From Prosthecobacter sp. (lineage in GTDB: Bacteria > Verrucomicrobiota > Verrucomicrobiia > Verrucomicrobiales > Verrucomicrobiaceae), in NCBI GenBank assembly GCA_019186985.1, contig JABARQ010000004.1, forward strand, positions 130,414 to 154,413: a DNA stretch of 24,000 nucleotides. Reading direction: 5' to 3'. Shown here in pieces: positions 12,623 through 24,000 of the stretch. Each line of letters begins with the position of its first letter. Positions within the stretch are counted from its first letter, which is position 1. Under the pieces are notes generated by a model. That model saw only the letters and a program-made list of their open reading frames with translations, made no database searches and had not been told where the DNA came from. Position numbers and translations under genes: made by a program.

Positions 12623-13750
12623 ATGCTGCGCCGTCTCGCCAATATCTACCGCCTTGGAATCAAGGAGCTATGGAGCCTGGCACGCGATCCGTTCATGCTT
12701 GTGCTCATCGTCTATGCCTTCACAGTTGCGATCTATGTCGCCGCGACGGCAATGCCTGAGACGCTGCACAAGGCTCCCATCGCGATCGTGGACGAAGATG
12801 GCTCACCGCTCTCCGCGAGAATCACCTCCGCTTTCTATCCGCCGAACTTCCAGACGCCCATCCTGATCTCGCTCCGGGAATTGGACCCCGGCATGGACGA
12901 AGGCCGCTACACCTTCGCGCTCGACATACCCCCGGATTTTCAGCGCGACGTTCTCGCCGGTCGTTCACCGGCCATCCAGCTCAACGTGGATGCCACTCGA
13001 ATGAGCCAGGCATTCGCGGGGAGCGGCGATGTCCAGCAGATCGTGACCGGAGAAGTGAGCGATTTCGTCCGCCGCTACCGGGGCGGCACGGACGTGCCCG
13101 TGCAAATCACGGTGCGTAATCGCTTCAATCCCAATCTCGAGCGAAGTTGGTTCGGCTCGATCACGGAGATCATCAACAATGTCACCATGCTGTCGATTTT
13201 GCTCACCGGCGCCGCGCTCATTCGCGAGCGCGAGCATGGCACGGTCGAACACCTGCTCGTGATGCCCGTCACCCCCGGCGAAATCATGCTGGCGAAGGTC
13301 TGGTCCATGGCCGTCGTCGTGCTCCTGGCCACCACGATTTCATTGCTGGTCATCGTCCAAGGCGCGCTCAGCGTGCCGATTGAAGGTTCCATCCCGCTGT
13401 TCCTTGCGGGTGCCGCCTTGAATCTCTTCGCCACCACGTCACTGGGCATCTTCCTCGCGACGATCGCGCGCAGCATGCCGCAATTTGGCATGTTGCTCAT
13501 CCTCGTCCTGCTGCCCCTGCAAATGCTCTCCGGCGGCATGACGCCGCGCGAGAGCATGCCCCAATTCGTGCAGGACATCATGCTCGCCTCGCCCACCACT
13601 CACTTCGTCCAACTCGCCCAAGCCATTCTCTATCGTGGTGCCGGATTCGACGTTGTCTGGAAGCCATTTCTCATCCTGCTCATTCTCGGCGCGATCTTCT
13701 TCGCCCTCGCCCTCGGACGCTTCCGGAGGACCATCGGCCAGATGGTGTGA
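12623..13750 (+). CDS. ABC-2 family permease (E. coli YhhJ-like)
   Basis: 375 aa. An N-terminal TM is followed by a large loop, then 5 C-terminal TM helices, homologous to the permease half of the preceding gene. It starts 3 nt after the preceding stop. Confidence 0.9.
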   Translation: MLRRLANIYRLGIKELWSLARDPFMLVLIVYAFTVAIYVAATAMPETLHKAPIAIVDEDGSPLSARITSAFYPPNFQTPILISLRELDPGMDEGRYTFALDIPPDFQRDVLAGRSPAIQLNVDATRMSQAFAGSGDVQQIVTGEVSDFVRRYRGGTDVPVQITVRNRFNPNLERSWFGSITEIINNVTMLSILLTGAALIREREHGTVEHLLVMPVTPGEIMLAKVWSMAVVVLLATTISLLVIVQGALSVPIEGSIPLFLAGAALNLFATTSLGIFLATIARSMPQFGMLLILVLLPLQMLSGGMTPRESMPQFVQDIMLASPTTHFVQLAQAILYRGAGFDVVWKPFLILLILGAIFFALALGRFRRTIGQMV

Positions 13751-17861: not shown

Positions 17862-18461
17862 ATGACCGATCTGCCCGCCGTCCTCGCCCAGAAGCTCCTC
17901 CAGCACGACATCGCCAACCTCGTCCGCCGCGTTCAGCAGGGCCAACCACTCACCCCGGCTGAGCGCTCCATGCTCCAGGACATGGCGGCAGCTCCGGCGG
18001 CCCCTCCATCATCTCCCGCCTTGGTGGGCAGTTTTGTGGAGCTGGCGGCCGTCCTGCGCGTCACAAGGCGAACGATCCAGACCTGGCGGAAGCGCTCCGA
18101 TGCACCCAGGCCGACCGCCGCAGGCTTTCACGAGGTGGAGGCCTGGCGGGAGTTCATGCGCCAGGCGAGGCTTGCGGGCCAATGCAACCCGGAGGAGGCC
18201 GAACTGCGCCTGCGTCGGCTGCTGGCCGAGACCCAGGAGCGGGAGATGCGCCTTCAGGCTCGACGGGCGCTGTATGTATCGCGCGCCGAGGTGTGGGCGG
18301 AGTGGAGCCGAGTAAAGGCCCGCGTAACGAGGCTGCTGAGGGAGAAGTTTGAGCAGGAGCTTCCCGGCGTGCTGGTCGAGCTGGAGGCGGCCGAGATCCA
18401 GTCGGTGAACCAGAGGGCGATTGATGAAGTGTTGACCTGGCTCAGCCAGGGAGAGGCATAG
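17862..18461 (+). CDS. HTH + coiled-coil protein resembling Nu1-type terminase small subunits (function uncertain)
   Basis: FVELAAVLRVTRRTIQTWRKRSDAP...HEVEAWREFMRQ resembles the lambda Nu1 N-terminal wHTH (LADIFGASIRTIQNWQEQGMP...). It is followed by a charged coiled coil (EEAELRLRRLLAETQEREMRLQ). Convergent with the giant gene. Confidence 0.6.
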   Translation: MTDLPAVLAQKLLQHDIANLVRRVQQGQPLTPAERSMLQDMAAAPAAPPSSPALVGSFVELAAVLRVTRRTIQTWRKRSDAPRPTAAGFHEVEAWREFMRQARLAGQCNPEEAELRLRRLLAETQEREMRLQARRALYVSRAEVWAEWSRVKARVTRLLREKFEQELPGVLVELEAAEIQSVNQRAIDEVLTWLSQGEA

Positions 18462-18611: not shown

Positions 18612-21600
18612 TCATTTTTCGCCCCAGTGGGCGCACACCCCCGCCTCGACTTCGATGGGCACCTGCGGGAACAGGGTGGCCATCGCCTCAATCATGGTCG
18701 ATTGGACCAGATCACGGACCTCAACCGCCTTTGCCTCAGGCACCTCGACGATCACTTCATCGTGGACCGTGGAGAGGATCTGCGCGTCGGCAGGCAGCCG
18801 CTCGGCCAGAAGAACCAGAGCCTGCTTCATGCCGTCGGCGGAACCGCCCTGGACGGGCATGTTCACGAGGGCGGTGAAACGTTCCCATTCGGAAGCGGTT
18901 TCCGGGATGAGACGGCGGCGGCCCAGCACCGTGCGCACTTCGCGGGCACCTTCGTCGGCCTTGTTGCGGCTGACGCCGTGCCACTGACGCAGGCGGTCGT
19001 AGGTGCGGAAGAACTGGCGGCGGATCTTCTCGGCCTGGTCCAGCTCCAGATGCACGCCGTAGCTGGAGGCGGCGTAGCGCACGAGGCCCGGAGCGCTCTG
19101 ACCGTAGAGCAAACCGAACGAGGCCGCTTTTCCTGTCTGCCGGTCCGCCTTACTCACGTCCTCCAGGGGTTTGCCCAGCACCTCGGCTGCGGTCTGCTTG
19201 TGCAGGTCCACGCCGTTGCGATACGCCTCGATCATCTTCTTCTCCCCGGCGATCACGGCGGCAGCACGCAGCTCGATCTGCGAGTAGTCGGCGACGATGA
19301 GCTTGTGACCAGGGCAGGGGATAAAGCACTCACGCAGCTCGCCGCGTCCCACGTTTTGCAGGTTCGGCTCCTTGGAGGCAAAGCGTCCCGTGGCCGTGCC
19401 GGTTGGATCGAAGCGGCCATGGATGCGCCCATCCGGCTTTACGCAGTCCAGGAGTGATGCAGCCTGTTGGGCGAGCTTTTCAGCGCCTCGATAGTCGAGG
19501 ATCAGCGGGATGATCTCGCCATCGTCCGCCGCCTTGAGCGTTTCCTCGTTGGTGTTCTCCAGCTCGATGCCTGAGGCTTTGAGCGCCTCAAGAAGCTGCT
19601 GCGGGCTGCCTGGGTTGAGCTTGGGAAGGTTGAGCTTTTGCCGCAGCATCCCGGCATGGTCGGAGGCGGAGGAGCGTGCCCTCGTTTCGATCTCTCGGAG
19701 CTTGGCTTTGTCCACGGCAATGCCAGCGGCTTCCATCTCGACGATGACGGGCACGAGATCGAACTCCAGACGCGCCACCCGGTCGAGCCCCTCGTGTTCC
19801 AGTTCACCCCAGAGCTTGTTGGAGAGCGCCTGGAGGTGGAACACATCTCGGGCGGCATAGGCGAGCTGATCCTCGGTGAGGAACATGGAACCCCAGTCCG
19901 AACGGCTGTGATCCGGGGCGGGAGCAATGCCCAGGTAGCGTTCCAGGCACTTGTCCAGGTCGTTGCCGGGTTTGGTGCCTGCGGTGAGCAGGCGGGCGGC
20001 AGTGAGCGTGCAGAACACGCGTGTGGCGCGCAGGCCGCATTTCACGCGCAGCCAGAGGAGATCGAACTTGGCATTGTGGGCGATGATCTCGGTGGCTTCG
20101 AGAATGGGCTTCAGTTCGCCCAGGTCGTAGCCGATGGCCCGCAGGTCGAGCGTCCAAATCGGGCCGCCCTCGCGGCAAAGGGAAAGCAGCCGGATTTCCC
20201 CCTTCCAGGGATCGAGGCCGTCGCCCTTGCCTGCCCCGCAGGTTTCGATGTCCACCGAGATGCCCGAGGCCCCGGCCAGGTCCGCACCAATCCGCTCCAG
20301 GTCACTCCGGGCGGTGCAGAAGACCGCCGACAGTGAGGTGTGAGGTGCAGTGAGGTTTGGCTGACCGTGATGTAGAGACTCAATAAATGGTCTTTCATTT
20401 TCTGAAATTGCTCCGCATTTTTCCGCGCACGCGGAACGACTGGAAAAACCTCCCTCCACCTCACACCTCACTGTTGGGGATGCCCCGGAGGAAAGCAGGG
20501 CGGCGGGTTGCGAGGAGCGGAGAAAGCGGTATTTGCAGCAGTTGGCCGATGTCCGCTGGACGCCAAAGACCACGCCCCCGAGCTCCCGGCCGTCGAACTT
20601 GGCGAGCAACTTGGCGAAGGCGACCATGCCGCGCTTCTGCGTGAAGTCGATCCAGTCGAACAGCTCCTGAACCTCCTCCACCTCCCGCACCCACTCATAG
20701 ACCGTGTTCTTGGGCGTCCATTCGCTGCCAAACCGGTCATGGCCCAGGCCGAAGAACTGACGCATGGCACGGGTGTCCTGGTCGCCGGAGGACTGGCTGT
20801 CGGCGTGCGGCTGGCAGGGATCCGGCAGCCCACAGGCAGCCAGGATGCCTCCAACGACCCTGCCCCAGTCCGGAAAGGAGGTGAACGGACTCGGTCCAGG
20901 CGGGCATCCGTTGCCAACCCAATGGGCGACCAGGGTGGCAATCGCGGAAAGCAGCTCGGAGCGGTTCTGCCGCACCCAGTCCAGGAGGTTCGGCTGACGG
21001 TAGCGATGCCCGTTGATGTCCTCCGGCGTGAACCTCAGCCGGATGCGGCGGCAGCGGCGCTCGATGTCCGGCTCCCAGGTGGCGTTGTTGGCCGAAAAGC
21101 TGAACTCCGTCTCATTGGGCAGGACCAGGGTTTCGCTCACGCCGAGGCGGCGGTCCTCCCAGATGCCCGAGTTGTCGGTGGCCGCCTCAAGGGCGGCATA
21201 ACGGACGTGCCCCTTCATGTTGGCGAGGTGGAAGAACCGGCTGCCGGCCATGAGGGCGGAGGTGATCCGCTTGCGCATTTCCTCGTCACCGTCCTTGGAG
21301 AGCGGGGCGCAGATGATCGAGCGCCCGGTGTAAAGGACGTGCGTCACATCGGCGCAGGTGTCCTTGCCGCAGCCCTCCCGGTTGCCGTCATAGATCCAGA
21401 GGGGCGTGCGCTTCCAGCGCATCAGCCCCCGGCAGAACGGCGTGATGAGGCGGGCCAGGGCATGCACCCTGGCCTGTTCGTCCTGCCACCAGAACCCGCC
21501 CTCCTCCGGCTGGCAGAACAGCTCGCCCAACAGCAGGCGAAGGGCCTCCTCAAAGCCCATCGGGCGCAACGTCGGTGCGTCGGGGCTCAGCCAGGTCCCG

Positions 21601-23432
21601 AAGCGCTCGTCATAGCCGGGCCTGGGATAGACCACCTGTCCTTCGTGAAGGACCGGCACCGGCACGTCCAGCAGGCGGACGATCCTGGGCAGCCGCGAGA
21701 GGAACTGCCGGGCCGAGAGCACCACACGCGCGTCGGACTCAGCCATGCTCTTCTGCATGAACACGCTGTCGCCTGCCTCATCCTGCCTGAGCACGCCGGT
21801 TTCCACCGAGCGCTCGGCGGCGGTCACCAGGTCGGCCGCCTTGAGCGTGTGCAGCATGGTGCCAGGGATCGCGCCCCTGGCGTCGGACTCCTTCACCATC
21901 GTGATTTCAACGACGTTTCGGGAGAACTGAAACAGATCCAGCCTTGGTCCGATCACCTCCCCCAGCTCGGTGGCGAACTCGCTGTGGCTCCTGCCGGTGC
22001 CAGGAAGCTCAATCTTCGGACGGGCGCCCGAAGGCCGCACGCCCGGCTGCCAGACGCGCAGACCGGTGCAATGAGCGGCAATGATCCCAGGGCGCTGCGA
22101 CTCGCACCATTGCACGAAGTCAGGCAGACCACGCTCGTCGCAGTGGGCATGCAGGCAGCGGAAGGCCGGCAGTGTGCCGGGCGCGTTGAAGAGCACCGTA
22201 TCAGATCCCGGTTCGCCCTTCGCCCGTTCGCTGTGCTGGTCCTGCCACGGGCAGCGCACGGCCCACTTGCCGGTGTCCGGATCCAGGCAGCCACCTAGGA
22301 TGTCCAGTTCCCCGGCCACCTTCACCAGATCCAGCGTGCGCAGGTCTTCCCGCCATTGGGACCACCAGGGCTTTTCCTTCGCAGGGCGGCCCGGCTTCCT
22401 GACCTCCGGCGTTGCAAAACCGAACCACCTCCGCAGCTGCTCCCAGCTCACCTCGGGGATCGGGCCGGTCACCTCCCAGGTGTAGCGGTGGCCGCTTTTG
22501 TGGACGGAGGGACTGAGCACCAGATTGAGGCCGTCAAAGTAGAGCTCGGCGCTTACCTTCTCATTGATCTGGCAGGTGATAGCCTTTCTGGATTTGAGCA
22601 CGCCCTCGGGCAGGTCGCGGCAGATGAAATGCAGGTGGGCACCTCCTCCGGTGCGCTCCCGGGGCACGGCGGCAAGCGCCGGATGAGCTTCCAGCCAGGC
22701 GCGGACCGAAGCACCGCTGTCAGGCTTGCTGTCGAGGTCCACGGCGACGAAGGGCGGGCGGACCACGACACCGAGGTTGTAGGGCGTTTGGGAGGAGAAC
22801 ACCTCATGAAGGTCCTCCGGGGTCACGTCGGCAGCCTTGTGGTCGCGCCAGCCTTTGGAACAGGGCTTCTTGCCCCGTTCTTTGTCATCGCCGCGATCGG
22901 GCGGCACAAGGGGGTGCACGGCCCAGCCGAGCTGCTGGTGGTAGAAGGAGGCAGCACGCAGACGGTCCCAGGAATGAATGTCCTCAGGAATCACCCAGCC
23001 ATGGCGGGGAGTGGAATCAAACTCGGGGTGGTTGATTCCTTTGATTCCATCCTGAGCCCCGGAAATGGAATCAAACTCGGTCTGCCCGGCAGGTTTGATT
23101 CCACCGGTTGATTCCAAATTGGAATCAATTTCGGGTCGTTTGATTCCTTTGATTCCATCCTGAGCTCCCGAAATGGGATCAAACTCGGTCTGGCCGGCAG
23201 GTTTGATTCCACGGGTTGATTCCAAATTGGAATCAACTTCAGGCCGGTTGATTCCTTTGATTCCATCCTGAACCCCCGAAATGGAATCAACCGCAGCGTG
23301 CTGCTTCCACTGTTCGCGTGCCGCCCGCTTGAGCAGTGTGGACACGGACACGCCAAACTGCTCTGCCACACGCCTCAGAGAGCTGCCGCCGCCTTCGTAG
23401 CACCTGCGAACCTGGTTCCAGTCCACGGTCAT
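18612..23432 (-). CDS. 1606-aa fusion: HTH / 36-aa repeats / AEP primase-polymerase / Zn motif / SF3 (D5/P4-alpha)-like NTPase / DEDD 3'-5' exonuclease / family A DNA polymerase
   Basis: Domains by nt. HTH 23292-23432 (SLRRVAEQFGVSVSTLLKRAAREQW). Repeats 23013-23288. PrimPol 22428-22970 (VAVDLD, TGGGAHLHF, SPSVHKSGHRY). Zn motif 22140-22253 (CPWQDQH...FRCLHAHC). SF3-like ~21033-21515 (GNREGCGKDT, FSFSANN). Exo ~19818-20270 (DIET checked at 20241-20252, HNAKFD, YAARD). PolA 18615-19790 (DYSQIELR checked at 19266-19289, RQTGKAASFGLLYG, VHDE). The start ATG overlaps the upstream gene's stop (ATGA). Confidence 0.9.
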   Translation of the reverse strand: MTVDWNQVRRCYEGGGSSLRRVAEQFGVSVSTLLKRAAREQWKQHAAVDSISGVQDGIKGINRPEVDSNLESTRGIKPAGQTEFDPISGAQDGIKGIKRPEIDSNLESTGGIKPAGQTEFDSISGAQDGIKGINHPEFDSTPRHGWVIPEDIHSWDRLRAASFYHQQLGWAVHPLVPPDRGDDKERGKKPCSKGWRDHKAADVTPEDLHEVFSSQTPYNLGVVVRPPFVAVDLDSKPDSGASVRAWLEAHPALAAVPRERTGGGAHLHFICRDLPEGVLKSRKAITCQINEKVSAELYFDGLNLVLSPSVHKSGHRYTWEVTGPIPEVSWEQLRRWFGFATPEVRKPGRPAKEKPWWSQWREDLRTLDLVKVAGELDILGGCLDPDTGKWAVRCPWQDQHSERAKGEPGSDTVLFNAPGTLPAFRCLHAHCDERGLPDFVQWCESQRPGIIAAHCTGLRVWQPGVRPSGARPKIELPGTGRSHSEFATELGEVIGPRLDLFQFSRNVVEITMVKESDARGAIPGTMLHTLKAADLVTAAERSVETGVLRQDEAGDSVFMQKSMAESDARVVLSARQFLSRLPRIVRLLDVPVPVLHEGQVVYPRPGYDERFGTWLSPDAPTLRPMGFEEALRLLLGELFCQPEEGGFWWQDEQARVHALARLITPFCRGLMRWKRTPLWIYDGNREGCGKDTCADVTHVLYTGRSIICAPLSKDGDEEMRKRITSALMAGSRFFHLANMKGHVRYAALEAATDNSGIWEDRRLGVSETLVLPNETEFSFSANNATWEPDIERRCRRIRLRFTPEDINGHRYRQPNLLDWVRQNRSELLSAIATLVAHWVGNGCPPGPSPFTSFPDWGRVVGGILAACGLPDPCQPHADSQSSGDQDTRAMRQFFGLGHDRFGSEWTPKNTVYEWVREVEEVQELFDWIDFTQKRGMVAFAKLLAKFDGRELGGVVFGVQRTSANCCKYRFLRSSQPAALLSSGASPTVRCEVEGGFSSRSACAEKCGAISENERPFIESLHHGQPNLTAPHTSLSAVFCTARSDLERIGADLAGASGISVDIETCGAGKGDGLDPWKGEIRLLSLCREGGPIWTLDLRAIGYDLGELKPILEATEIIAHNAKFDLLWLRVKCGLRATRVFCTLTAARLLTAGTKPGNDLDKCLERYLGIAPAPDHSRSDWGSMFLTEDQLAYAARDVFHLQALSNKLWGELEHEGLDRVARLEFDLVPVIVEMEAAGIAVDKAKLREIETRARSSASDHAGMLRQKLNLPKLNPGSPQQLLEALKASGIELENTNEETLKAADDGEIIPLILDYRGAEKLAQQAASLLDCVKPDGRIHGRFDPTGTATGRFASKEPNLQNVGRGELRECFIPCPGHKLIVADYSQIELRAAAVIAGEKKMIEAYRNGVDLHKQTAAEVLGKPLEDVSKADRQTGKAASFGLLYGQSAPGLVRYAASSYGVHLELDQAEKIRRQFFRTYDRLRQWHGVSRNKADEGAREVRTVLGRRRLIPETASEWERFTALVNMPVQGGSADGMKQALVLLAERLPADAQILSTVHDEVIVEVPEAKAVEVRDLVQSTMIEAMATLFPQVPIEVEAGVCAHWGEK
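20331..20473. repeat. 143-bp AT-rich element with 28-bp terminal inverted repeats, embedded in frame in the giant gene
   Basis: Left arm 20331-20358 is cagtgaggtgtgaggtgcagtgaggttt. The reverse complement of 20446-20473 is cagtgaggtgtgaggtggagggaggttt. That gives 26/28 matches, with the outer 17 perfect. The 87-nt centre is visibly AT-richer than its flanks and contains the hairpin TTCCGCGcaCGCGGAA (20421-20436). Confidence 0.9.
23013..23290. repeat. Tandem 108-bp repeat (~2.6 units) carrying 16 copies of the octamer TTGATTCC/GGAATCAA; candidate iteron array
   Basis: TTGATTCC starts at 23032, 23041, 23095, 23108, 23140, 23149, 23203, 23216, 23248 and 23257. GGAATCAA starts at 23013, 23067, 23121, 23229 and 23283, with the variant GGGATCAA at 23175. 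The 21-bp palindrome TTGATTCCAAATTGGAATCAA occurs at 23108-23128 and 23216-23236. The array encodes aa 49-140 of the giant protein. Confidence 0.9.
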
Positions 23433-23671
23433 CGTGCCACCTCCCCTCCAGCCTTGGAAGCACGCTTAGTCCGCTTAGAGGTAAGCTTCCGGTTGACCTT
23501 CAGGTAGCCGATCACCTCCACAATGTCGTAGCGCACCACGGACCCCAGCTGGAAGTGGGGCAGACCTACCTTGCGCAGGTTGATGAGATGCCGAACGCTA
23601 ACCTTGAGCAGTTTGGCGAGTTCAGGTTCAGTGAGCCACACTTGTGGCCGGGGAGGTGCAGGTTGGTTCAT
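23429..23671 (-). CDS. Excisionase/MerR-type (HTH_17-like) DNA-binding protein, 80 aa
   Basis: Start chosen at MNQPAPPRPQVWLTEPELAKLLKVSVRHLINLRKVGLPHFQLGSVVRYDIVEVIGYL (ATG 23669-23671, preceded by a G-run). The tracked 140-aa form adds an unlikely Cys-rich leader that crosses the palindromic control region. Its stop overlaps the giant gene's start. Confidence 0.75.
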   Translation of the reverse strand: MNQPAPPRPQVWLTEPELAKLLKVSVRHLINLRKVGLPHFQLGSVVRYDIVEVIGYLKVNRKLTSKRTKRASKAGGEVAR

Positions 23672-23686
23672 CCCCCCTGGAAGGGT

Positions 23687-23754
23687 GTCAACCAGCCTTG
23701 GGAGGGCGGCCCTGGTGATGTTCGTTGCGCAACGAAGATGGCTGGTTGGTTGAC
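23687..23754. promoter_or_regulatory. Nested palindromes in the divergent control region between the two HTH genes
   Basis: A perfect 16-bp palindrome TTCGTTGCGCAACGAA (23721-23736) is flanked by an outer inverted repeat, GTCAACCAGCC (23687-23697) / GGCTGGTTggttGAC (23740-23754). GGTTGGTT recurs at 23661-23668. Confidence 0.5.
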
Positions 23755-23769
23755 ATCGCCCCCCCGTGC

Positions 23770-24000
23770 ATGAGCAACAACATGCAATCAGGGGCAGCCA
23801 CGCCCGAGGAAACGCAGGCGAGACCAGCCTCCCCTCAACTCTGGACCGCACGCGATGTGGCGCGTTACGCTCGGTGCAGCCTCCGGCAGGTCGGGTATCT
23901 GCGGTCGGAGGGTCTGCCTTTTGTGCGCATCGGCCGCCTCATCCGCTTTGATCCTCCTCAGGTGAGAGCCTGGCTGCTGGGCCATGCACCGGCCAACCTT
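23770..24000 (+). CDS. Excisionase/AlpA-type HTH protein (3' end outside window; absent from the ORF track because no stop is in the window)
   Basis: Frame 1 from ATG 23770 (alternative ATG 23782) is open to nt 24000: MSNNMQSGAATPEETQARPASPQLWTARDVARYARCSLRQVGYLRSEGLPFVRIGRLIRFDPPQVRAWLLGHAPANL... Confidence 0.65.
   Translation, partial: MSNNMQSGAATPEETQARPASPQLWTARDVARYARCSLRQVGYLRSEGLPFVRIGRLIRFDPPQVRAWLLGHAPANL

Follow-up and report, generated by a model that had tools for sequence, protein, structure and literature searches.

What are the short repeats inside a large replicase gene for? The gene examined here lies in a 24,000-nucleotide (nt) stretch of a Prosthecobacter sp. genome (GenBank assembly GCA_019186985.1, contig JABARQ010000004.1, positions 130,414 to 154,413 of the forward strand), which we call the window and number from its first letter. 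It encodes a single protein of 1606 amino acids (aa), it belongs to a small integrated element of Verrucomicrobiota, and its two linker-coding segments hold two arrays of short repeated words—array 1 and array 2. An earlier note, made from the letters of the window, had proposed array 1 as a candidate intragenic origin of replication. By computational analysis we find that array 1 is constrained as DNA and linked to the helix-turn-helix (HTH) domain encoded beside it, and that array 2 is the more likely of the two to deserve the name of origin. The features, by window position, are these:

18612-23432, minus strand: replicase gene (1606 aa), encoding in order the HTH, linker 1, PrimPol, a D5/SF3-like helicase with a winged-helix-like end, linker 2, a 3'-5' exonuclease and PolA.
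23295-23432, minus strand: N-terminal three-helix HTH (aa 1-46), proposed reader of array 1 (HTH_7 and PHROG matches, AlphaFold2 [AF2] model, covariation).
23013-23290, no strand: array 1, with 15 exact and one one-mismatch copies of GGAATCAA/TTGATTCC in 2.6 repeats of 108 bp, including two palindromes; encodes aa 48-140.
22173-23003, minus strand: PrimPol (archaeo-eukaryotic primase) and zinc-binding region, aa 144-420 (PF09250, 9e-16; AF2 predicted local distance difference test [pLDDT] 85-97).
20508-22025, minus strand: middle domain, aa 470-975, a D5/SF3-like replicative helicase and proposed reader of array 2 (AF2 pLDDT 80-97; Foldseek).
20327-20477, no strand: array 2, candidate core origin, with inverted GTGAGGT/ACCTCAC heptamers around an AT-rich spacer; encodes aa 988-1033 in linker 2.
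18618-20315, minus strand: 3'-5' exonuclease (aa 1040-1212; PF01612, 2e-19) and family A polymerase (aa 1255-1605; PF00476, 1e-77).
23429-23671, minus strand: small HTH_17 (excisionase-like) gene, immediately upstream of the replicase.

Across the whole window, TTGATTCC or its complement GGAATCAA occurs exactly 16 times, 15 of them within 23013-23290 and one as a stray at 12656, against a chance level of 0.87 per window (maximum 3) in dinucleotide-preserving shuffles. The earlier note had counted 16 octamers in the array itself; the dense cluster in both orientations is real, and the count is corrected to 15 exact copies plus one variant with a single mismatch (TTGATCCC, 23175-23182), all in 278 bp, a density that qualifies as an iteron cluster. 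Two more one-mismatch octamers, at 22971 and 22987, adjoin the array. On the coding strand, 10 exact copies read GGAATCAA and five read TTGATTCC, with the extended consensus aaTGGAATCAA. The array had also been described as a 108-bp DNA repeat behind a 36-aa protein repeat and as containing two perfect 10+1+10 palindromes, and both descriptions hold: Tandem Repeats Finder returns a period of 108 bp (2.6 copies, 90% matches, 23012-23290) with a sub-period of 54 bp, each unit carrying six octamers and encoding one 36-aa repeat, and the 21-bp palindromes, TTGATTCCAAATTGGAATCAA, lie at 23108-23128 and 23216-23236. The array begins about 140 nt past the start codon, inside the transcribed gene, and its codons (48-140) directly follow the HTH (aa 4-39), where the note had placed it. 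Its GC content is 0.49, with a minimum of 0.40 over 60 nt, compared with 0.37 for the spacer of array 2. There is no discrete AT-rich block flanking array 1, such as would serve for unwinding at an iteron-type origin, and the motif is absent from the promoter region (23433-24000). RNA of the array folds better than shuffled sequence (z = -3.5); this extra stability is an automatic by-product of the inverted copies.

Is the repeat kept for its DNA or for its peptide? The octamer is read in three ways, as GGA-ATC-AA (GIK/N) in eight copies, as xTT-GAT-TCC (xDS) in five and as G-GAA-TCA-A (ES-T) in two, and codon choice in the linker departs sharply from that in the rest of the gene. GGA makes up 64% of Gly codons in the linker versus 10% elsewhere, AAA 100% versus 21% of Lys codons, GAT 100% versus 23% of Asp codons and TTG 100% versus 3% of Leu codons, while the GC content at third codon positions is 0.47 versus 0.79. 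The earlier note had suggested comparing octamers among orthologous elements at their synonymous positions. We did so with 14 repeat units from the window and three related loci (L003, L004 and L005; 86-95% identical; loci are numbered as in the family scan below), after trimming the non-homologous ends of the last repeat units. Cells of the alignment differed in 2/532 cases within the heptamer cores and in 88/812 between them. At third codon positions no cell differed inside the word (0/190), compared with 45/258 outside it; counted by column, none of 15 third-position columns varied inside the word and 11 of 21 did outside (p = 7e-4), which is the safer figure because cells are not independent. 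Read from these alignments, the octamers of array 1 are kept for a function at the DNA level, synonymous sites included, and sequence between them drifts. The peptide is a tolerated, disordered linker, as had been suspected: linker 1 (aa 46-143) is predicted to be disordered, with pLDDT below 40, and neither its sequence nor its length is conserved among orthologues.

A peptide repeat made by slippage only is rejected on the two orientations, the three readings, the frozen synonymous sites and a non-tandem array at L012, where eight GGAATCA copies are dispersed through the linker without any tandem repeat. The HTH of L012 is 84% identical to that of the window and goes with the same word, and its PrimPol is 61% identical. 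What slippage looks like, by contrast, can be seen upstream of the replicase at L010 (1597-1690), where plain CAACCCGCC is repeated 10 times in one frame to give a PAQ/PTR peptide; counted by orientation, this repeat has 10 plus-strand copies and one minus-strand copy.

How widespread is an array of this kind among related replicases? A scan of species-representative genomes yielded 80 related loci, nearly all from Verrucomicrobiota metagenome-assembled genomes (MAGs); most are MAG contigs, and some are frameshifted or truncated. Twenty-nine loci, the window included, encode HTH, linker and PrimPol in a single frame. The HTH-PrimPol linker repeats one 6-8-mer in all 29, and in 28 it forms a dense hot spot, defined as at least six copies of one 7-mer per 300 nt; the exception, L048, has three word copies only. 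In about 1 Mb of locus DNA, 300-nt segments usually hold no more than two to three copies of any 7-mer, and those with at least six are rare and belong almost entirely to these arrays. The linkers range from 162 to 477 nt and the arrays from 8 to 28 sites over 160-480 bp, with a GC content of 0.5-0.7 in most relatives. Both orientations, each present at least twice, were found in 25 of 30 loci (the 29 in-frame loci plus the frameshifted L076), and at least two orientation-by-frame contexts in 23 of the 30.

The words themselves differ by lineage. They include TGGAATCAA, TGGCAGCA, TGGCACC, TGGAAGCA, GGGAACA, GGGGACA, GGGTGCA and GGTATGC, or in extended form aaTGGAATCAA, TGGCAGCa, aaaTGGCACC, aaTGGAAGCAa, cGGGAACAa, GGGGACA, GGGTGCa and GGTATGC. 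The linker peptides are unrelated across loci (GIK/DS, NGS/AAK, NGT/GAKS, GNK/LFP, EGT/SPQ and HTGM). Many MAGs hold two or three members of the family (different words occur together in L013/L023/L064 and in L003/L077; L020/L035 are also co-resident), and co-resident members usually differ in the words of both arrays, with the exception of L004/L005, which share one MAG and one word. These differences suggest incompatibility-like diversification, in agreement with a role in specificity.

Presence of the array follows presence of the HTH: the array accompanies the domain in 29 of 29 HTH loci and was found upstream of PrimPol in 0 of about 45 loci without it. In these HTH-less loci a Pif1-like helicase gene abuts the start of PrimPol. 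They have the same PrimPol-helicase-PolA core, so array 1 lacks the universality that would be expected of an iteron origin; more than half of the family is without it.

Which domain, then, would read array 1? The N-terminal HTH matches Pfam HTH_7 (E = 3e-6; match at aa 4-35, with three helices spanning aa 4-39), its best PHROG match is a small-terminase HTH (3e-8), and its AF2 model has a pLDDT of about 90, with helices at 5-15, 19-26 and 30-39. Its helices vary together with the word. The motif VSVSTLLKRAARE, covering the second and third helices, pairs with GGAATCA, and VSERTLFRRSAKE, covering the same two helices, with GGCAGCA; VPFDT[IVL]KKR pairs with GGCACCA and VPFSTLGKRAVRE with GGGAACA. 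The helix signatures SVSTLL, SERTLF and PFDT[IVL]K each occur with a single word. Pairwise identity over HTH aa 21-35 predicts whether two loci share a word with an area under the curve (AUC) of 0.94, compared with 0.59 for the adjacent PrimPol and 0.42-0.74 for other domains. Co-occurrence and the covariation of motif with recognition helix thus bear out the link between array and N-terminal HTH that the earlier note had drawn from position, and from these sequence comparisons the HTH and array 1 are probably a co-inherited, co-evolving module. If so, a recognition code would be expected, in which helix SVSTLLKRAARE prefers TGGAATCAA and helix SERTLFRRSAKE prefers TGGCAGCA. The HTH_17 protein encoded just upstream was ruled out as the partner of array 1, being conserved in relatives with and without the array.

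The rest of the protein has the parts of a replication machine. The Pfam PrimPol match spans aa 164-327. The middle 620 aa gave no match in Pfam or in a PDB sequence search, and the identity of the middle domain was drawn from PHROGs, distant homologues and a fold search. Its Walker A motif is GCGKDT. Foldseek matched it to African swine fever virus PrimPol, monkeypox virus E5, PriRep1 (7pds) of Staphylococcus aureus pathogenicity islands (SaPIs), SaPI5 (7ola), Cch of the staphylococcal cassette SCCmec and the C-terminal region of NrS-1, with E values of 1e-7 to 1e-5 (about 1e-6 for 7pds and 7ola), and distant sequence relatives of the helicase module follow Toprim, zinc-ribbon or PriCT primase domains. 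The helicase fold ends, directly before array 2, in three helices and a beta hairpin (aa about 885-972), which by the order of these secondary-structure elements appears winged-helix-like. Linker 2 (aa 975-1040) is predicted to be disordered, with pLDDT about 30. On sequence and models, the 1606-aa protein would be a one-chain replisome that combines origin reading (proposed), priming, unwinding, proofreading and synthesis. Fusions of archaeo-eukaryotic primases with PolA in Verrucomicrobia, Planctomycetota and Nitrospirae (PolA cluster 8) have received a passing mention (PMC10201439), so the protein family itself is not new. The passages of that paper on these fusions mention no N-terminal HTH, embedded repeat arrays or origin, and full-text literature searches found no published account of such arrays or of such an origin; the cis elements of this replicase family appear to be undescribed.

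Where might replication of the element start? Array 2, 2.6 kb from array 1 in the same gene, has 32-nt inverted arms that are 91% complementary, with two plus three exact heptamers. They stand on either side of a spacer of 87 nt, which contains A-tracts and the small hairpin TTCCGCG-TG-CGCGGAA (20421-20436) and holds the lowest-GC stretch of the gene in the window. The hot-spot scan found such a second array recurring some 2.55 kb beyond the start of PrimPol, whether or not the locus has the HTH. Its stereotyped layout—two to three words spaced 7-10 nt apart, an AT-rich stretch of about 100 nt and two to three inverted words, spanning about 140 nt—occupies the same place in 41 of 56 evaluable related loci, with a word specific to each locus, and in 34 of the 41 the gene-wide lowest-GC 80 nt falls in its spacer. 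The helicase domain is a better predictor of the array-2 word (AUC 0.80-0.87) than PrimPol (0.54-0.69) or the exonuclease and polymerase (0.46-0.68). Arrays 1 and 2 share no word in the window or in 19 relatives, each word being absent from the other zone.

Origins of SaPIs consist of at least two short iterons per side, opposed, around an AT-rich centre, and are read by the C-terminal winged helix of Rep, a self-loading helicase (PMC9371898). Array 2 resembles the origins of SaPIs and other phage-inducible chromosomal islands both in this layout, having at least two opposed iterons on each side of an AT-rich centre, and in its setting, directly after a Rep-like helicase with a winged-helix-like end. 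It differs in location: the SaPI origin lies just downstream of the rep open reading frame (ORF), whereas array 2, rather than being intergenic, sits inside the continuous 1606-aa ORF and doubles as linker-coding DNA, because exonuclease and PolA domains are fused downstream. It is plausible that this PolA fusion once engulfed an origin lying just after rep. Array 1 has no SaPI counterpart. By sequence and by this analogy, array 2 is more likely than array 1 to merit the origin label. It offers the unwinding element, sits in a helicase context and is present almost universally.

Taken as a whole, these comparisons lead us to favour a reading in which array 1 is a set of cognate sites for the HTH of the replicase itself, embedded in the DNA coding for the tether of that HTH, and is accessory rather than the unwinding origin; we regard this as probable. 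What the comparisons show is constraint on array 1 as DNA, a pattern shared across the family, an association of HTH with array and an origin-like anatomy for array 2; binding, tethering, looping and origin function we infer along the following lines. Tethered flexibly by about 100 aa, HTH domains would dock on the 16 sites of array 1, whose orientation would be immaterial because the tether is flexible, and docking would concentrate the replicase on its own encoding DNA molecule. The helicase module would load at array 2, 2.6 kb away, its winged-helix-like end reading the heptamers, and the fused PrimPol and PolA would next prime and copy. Array 1 would act as an accessory cis-acting replicator and specificity module, a second specificity determinant, and lineage-specific words with matching recognition helices would prevent cross-talk between co-resident elements. 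Because array 2 occurs in relatives that have neither HTH nor array 1, array 1 appears dispensable for replication in the family and is better seen as an accessory cis site.

Several points weigh against this reading. Part of the covariation between the HTH and array 1 is co-inheritance, because the two lie side by side, and pairwise AUCs and cell counts ignore phylogeny. Array 2 falls short of the strict layout in 15 of the 56 evaluable loci. Array 1 of the window is itself AT-rich, so the unwinding argument is weaker here than across the family. A lambda-like origin in the linker after a DNA-binding domain would appear similar, and an accessory role (as tether, enhancer or feedback site) and a second origin are inseparable by sequence alone.

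We put forward one extension of the accessory-site reading only tentatively, as it is rather less likely to be right than wrong. Array 1 might be a self-encoded landing pad, in which the DNA coding for the tether doubles as the sites bound by the tethered HTH. The HTH is translated first and so could dock co-translationally on the source copy of the gene, which would give a cis-preferring replisome, and the arrays in the two linkers would together set incompatibility groups. Cis preference and fast-diversifying incompatibility groups would then let several related elements share one genome, and the system would represent a previously undescribed form of replicon self-recognition through dual-coded disordered linkers.

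Could array 1 itself be the origin, or one of two, with lambda-O-like iterons in linker-coding DNA bound by the N-terminal domain? The origin of phage lambda lies inside gene O, and its sites and DNA-binding domain diverge together among lambdoid elements. Array 1 likewise places initiator sites in their own gene, directly after an N-terminal DNA-binding domain and in linker-coding DNA; its site density is high, its motif covaries with the HTH, and for this genome it is AT-rich (GC 0.49; minimum 0.40 over 60 nt). The lambda iterons are 19 bp long and partly symmetric, with the unwinding region directly after them, whereas array 1 has 16 8-mers and no such block. Lambda O recruits the host DnaB through P, whereas the window's protein is unrelated (HTH-PrimPol-SF3 helicase-exonuclease-PolA), and, unlike in lambda, a separate origin-like array lies 2.6 kb away. 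The published lambda origin has four iterons and an adjacent AT-rich region (PMC3017604). About 45 relatives share the replicase core without HTH and array 1 and keep array 2, which is retained equally often in the two classes of loci, A and B. In the family at large, array 1 has a GC content of 0.5-0.7, which is not AT-rich, and no discrete AT-rich flank, and the lowest GC lies in array 2 in 34 of 41 loci. We therefore consider an origin at array 1, the central proposal of the earlier note, unlikely; array 2 has the anatomy of an origin and persists where array 1 is missing.

The same note had also cited phage P4. In P4, crr is an accessory cis region kilobases from ori, built of long direct repeats, each with several copies of an octamer that the alpha primase-helicase binds; the octamer is common to ori and crr, and one C-terminal domain reads both. 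By this description array 1 is crr-like, having 108-bp direct repeats of six octamers each at 2.6 kb from array 2. What stands is this arrangement of octamers in long direct repeats, kilobases from an origin-like array; what does not is a motif in common. P4-like iterons shared between arrays 1 and 2 are ruled out, as the two have unrelated words, apparently read, unlike in P4, by two domains of one polypeptide.

Alternatively, array 1 may be purely autoregulatory, with HTH-bound replicase blocking elongation and so limiting replicase and copy number, and with no direct part in initiation. Its sites do lie inside the transcribed gene, starting some 140 nt past the start codon, and the logic from HTH to site is identical to that of the accessory-site reading; with no motif in the promoter region, any regulation would be by roadblock. 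As the whole explanation we find this improbable: 8 to 28 sites over 160-480 bp far exceed the needs of a roadblock, and autoregulation is compatible with an accessory cis site rather than exclusive of it.

We give even less credence to a pac-like packaging site or a centromere-like partition site recognised by a small-terminase-type HTH. Precedents exist in the pac sites found inside terS/pacA genes and in the centromere site inside repA of N15, the best PHROG match of the HTH is to a small-terminase HTH, and six relatives (L083-L088, from IMG/VR) lie on viral-classified contigs of 23-57 kb. All six, however, belong to the class that has neither HTH nor array 1, the partner to which the HTH is joined is a replicase rather than a terminase or ParB, and no capsid, terminase-large or ParA gene was found among the conserved neighbours or the ten ORFs checked at L084. 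A phage context at L084 was rejected on the ORFs checked, since these ten are type I restriction-modification, HTH_17, unannotated and host-type genes (epimerase, haloacid dehalogenase-type hydrolase, DprA), with no capsid or terminase. A replicase gene that holds two cis sites does have a precedent in repA of N15, whose RepA primes replication starting inside the gene and which also contains a centromere site (PMC2847241). That centromere is bound by SopB, not by RepA, and no homology or shared repeat architecture with the window's gene is established.

Least credible of all is an array 1 with no DNA-binding function, made by slippage as a low-complexity linker or kept for an mRNA structure of its inverted copies: the 108-bp tandem repeat and the RNA folding (z = -3.5) would fit, but slippage yields one orientation and one frame, as with CAACCCGCC at L010, where array 1 has both orientations and three readings; L012 retains the word without a tandem repeat; the word's synonymous positions are invariant while its flanks drift; the architecture persists across lineages under words that differ and that match the HTH helix; and the RNA stability follows automatically from the inverted copies.

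The replicase offers a clean case of dual coding, in which a stretch that codes for protein owes its form chiefly to what it does as DNA, across dozens of elements with differing words. HTH helices and the 7-8-bp words that match them form a natural series that would amount to a readable recognition code, and the family, an unstudied group of replicons, yields testable predictions about the reader of each array and the place where unwinding begins. If these predictions hold, a single gene would hold the replicase together with the cis sites proposed for it, a minimal replicon that would be attractive for vectors in a phylum with few genetic tools. The proposed engulfment, if true, would show how an origin can be taken into a fused gene and survive there.

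What surrounds the gene? The first 17.5 kb of the window carry ordinary chromosomal genes (RND efflux, ABC transporters, an acyltransferase), and the integrated element extends beyond the window end at 24000. No tRNA integration site was found in the window. Between the replicase stop and the chromosomal acyltransferase gene, a 199-aa ORF (17862-18461, plus strand) has weak HTH_23 and excisionase- or small-terminase-like matches; homologues occupy the same end of the element in eight other loci, and the ORF may mark its left boundary.

Gene content beside the replicase varies within the family. Just upstream, most relatives carry genes for the HTH_17 protein, a 246-aa protein of unknown function, a PD-(D/E)XK nuclease and a Pif1-like helicase, seen for example at L007 (7095-9998) and in the same relative positions in L019, L020, L024, L028, L036 and L050. 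The clade of the window, which includes L004-L006, has no Pif1 or nuclease genes directly upstream. Downstream of the replicase, relatives encode a 221-aa protein of unknown function and a DUF559-like protein. No integrase could be recognised.

A third kind of array occurs at L001 (4760-5045), where CGGGACA, a word resembling GGGAACA and GGGGACA, is present nine times in both orientations, with some spaced inverted pairs; the array lies some 1.2 kb ahead of the replicase gene and upstream of an ORF of 187 aa. In the window itself, an operator-like inverted repeat (TGTCAACCAGCC ... GGTTGGTTGACA; 12 nt, 92% complementary, 46 nt apart) spans 23686-23755, and a palindrome lies around 23718-23739; both are flanked by the HTH_17 gene on one side and, on the other, by a divergent HTH ORF continuing past the window end. 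This region, 23686-23755, is probably the regulatory switch region of the element.

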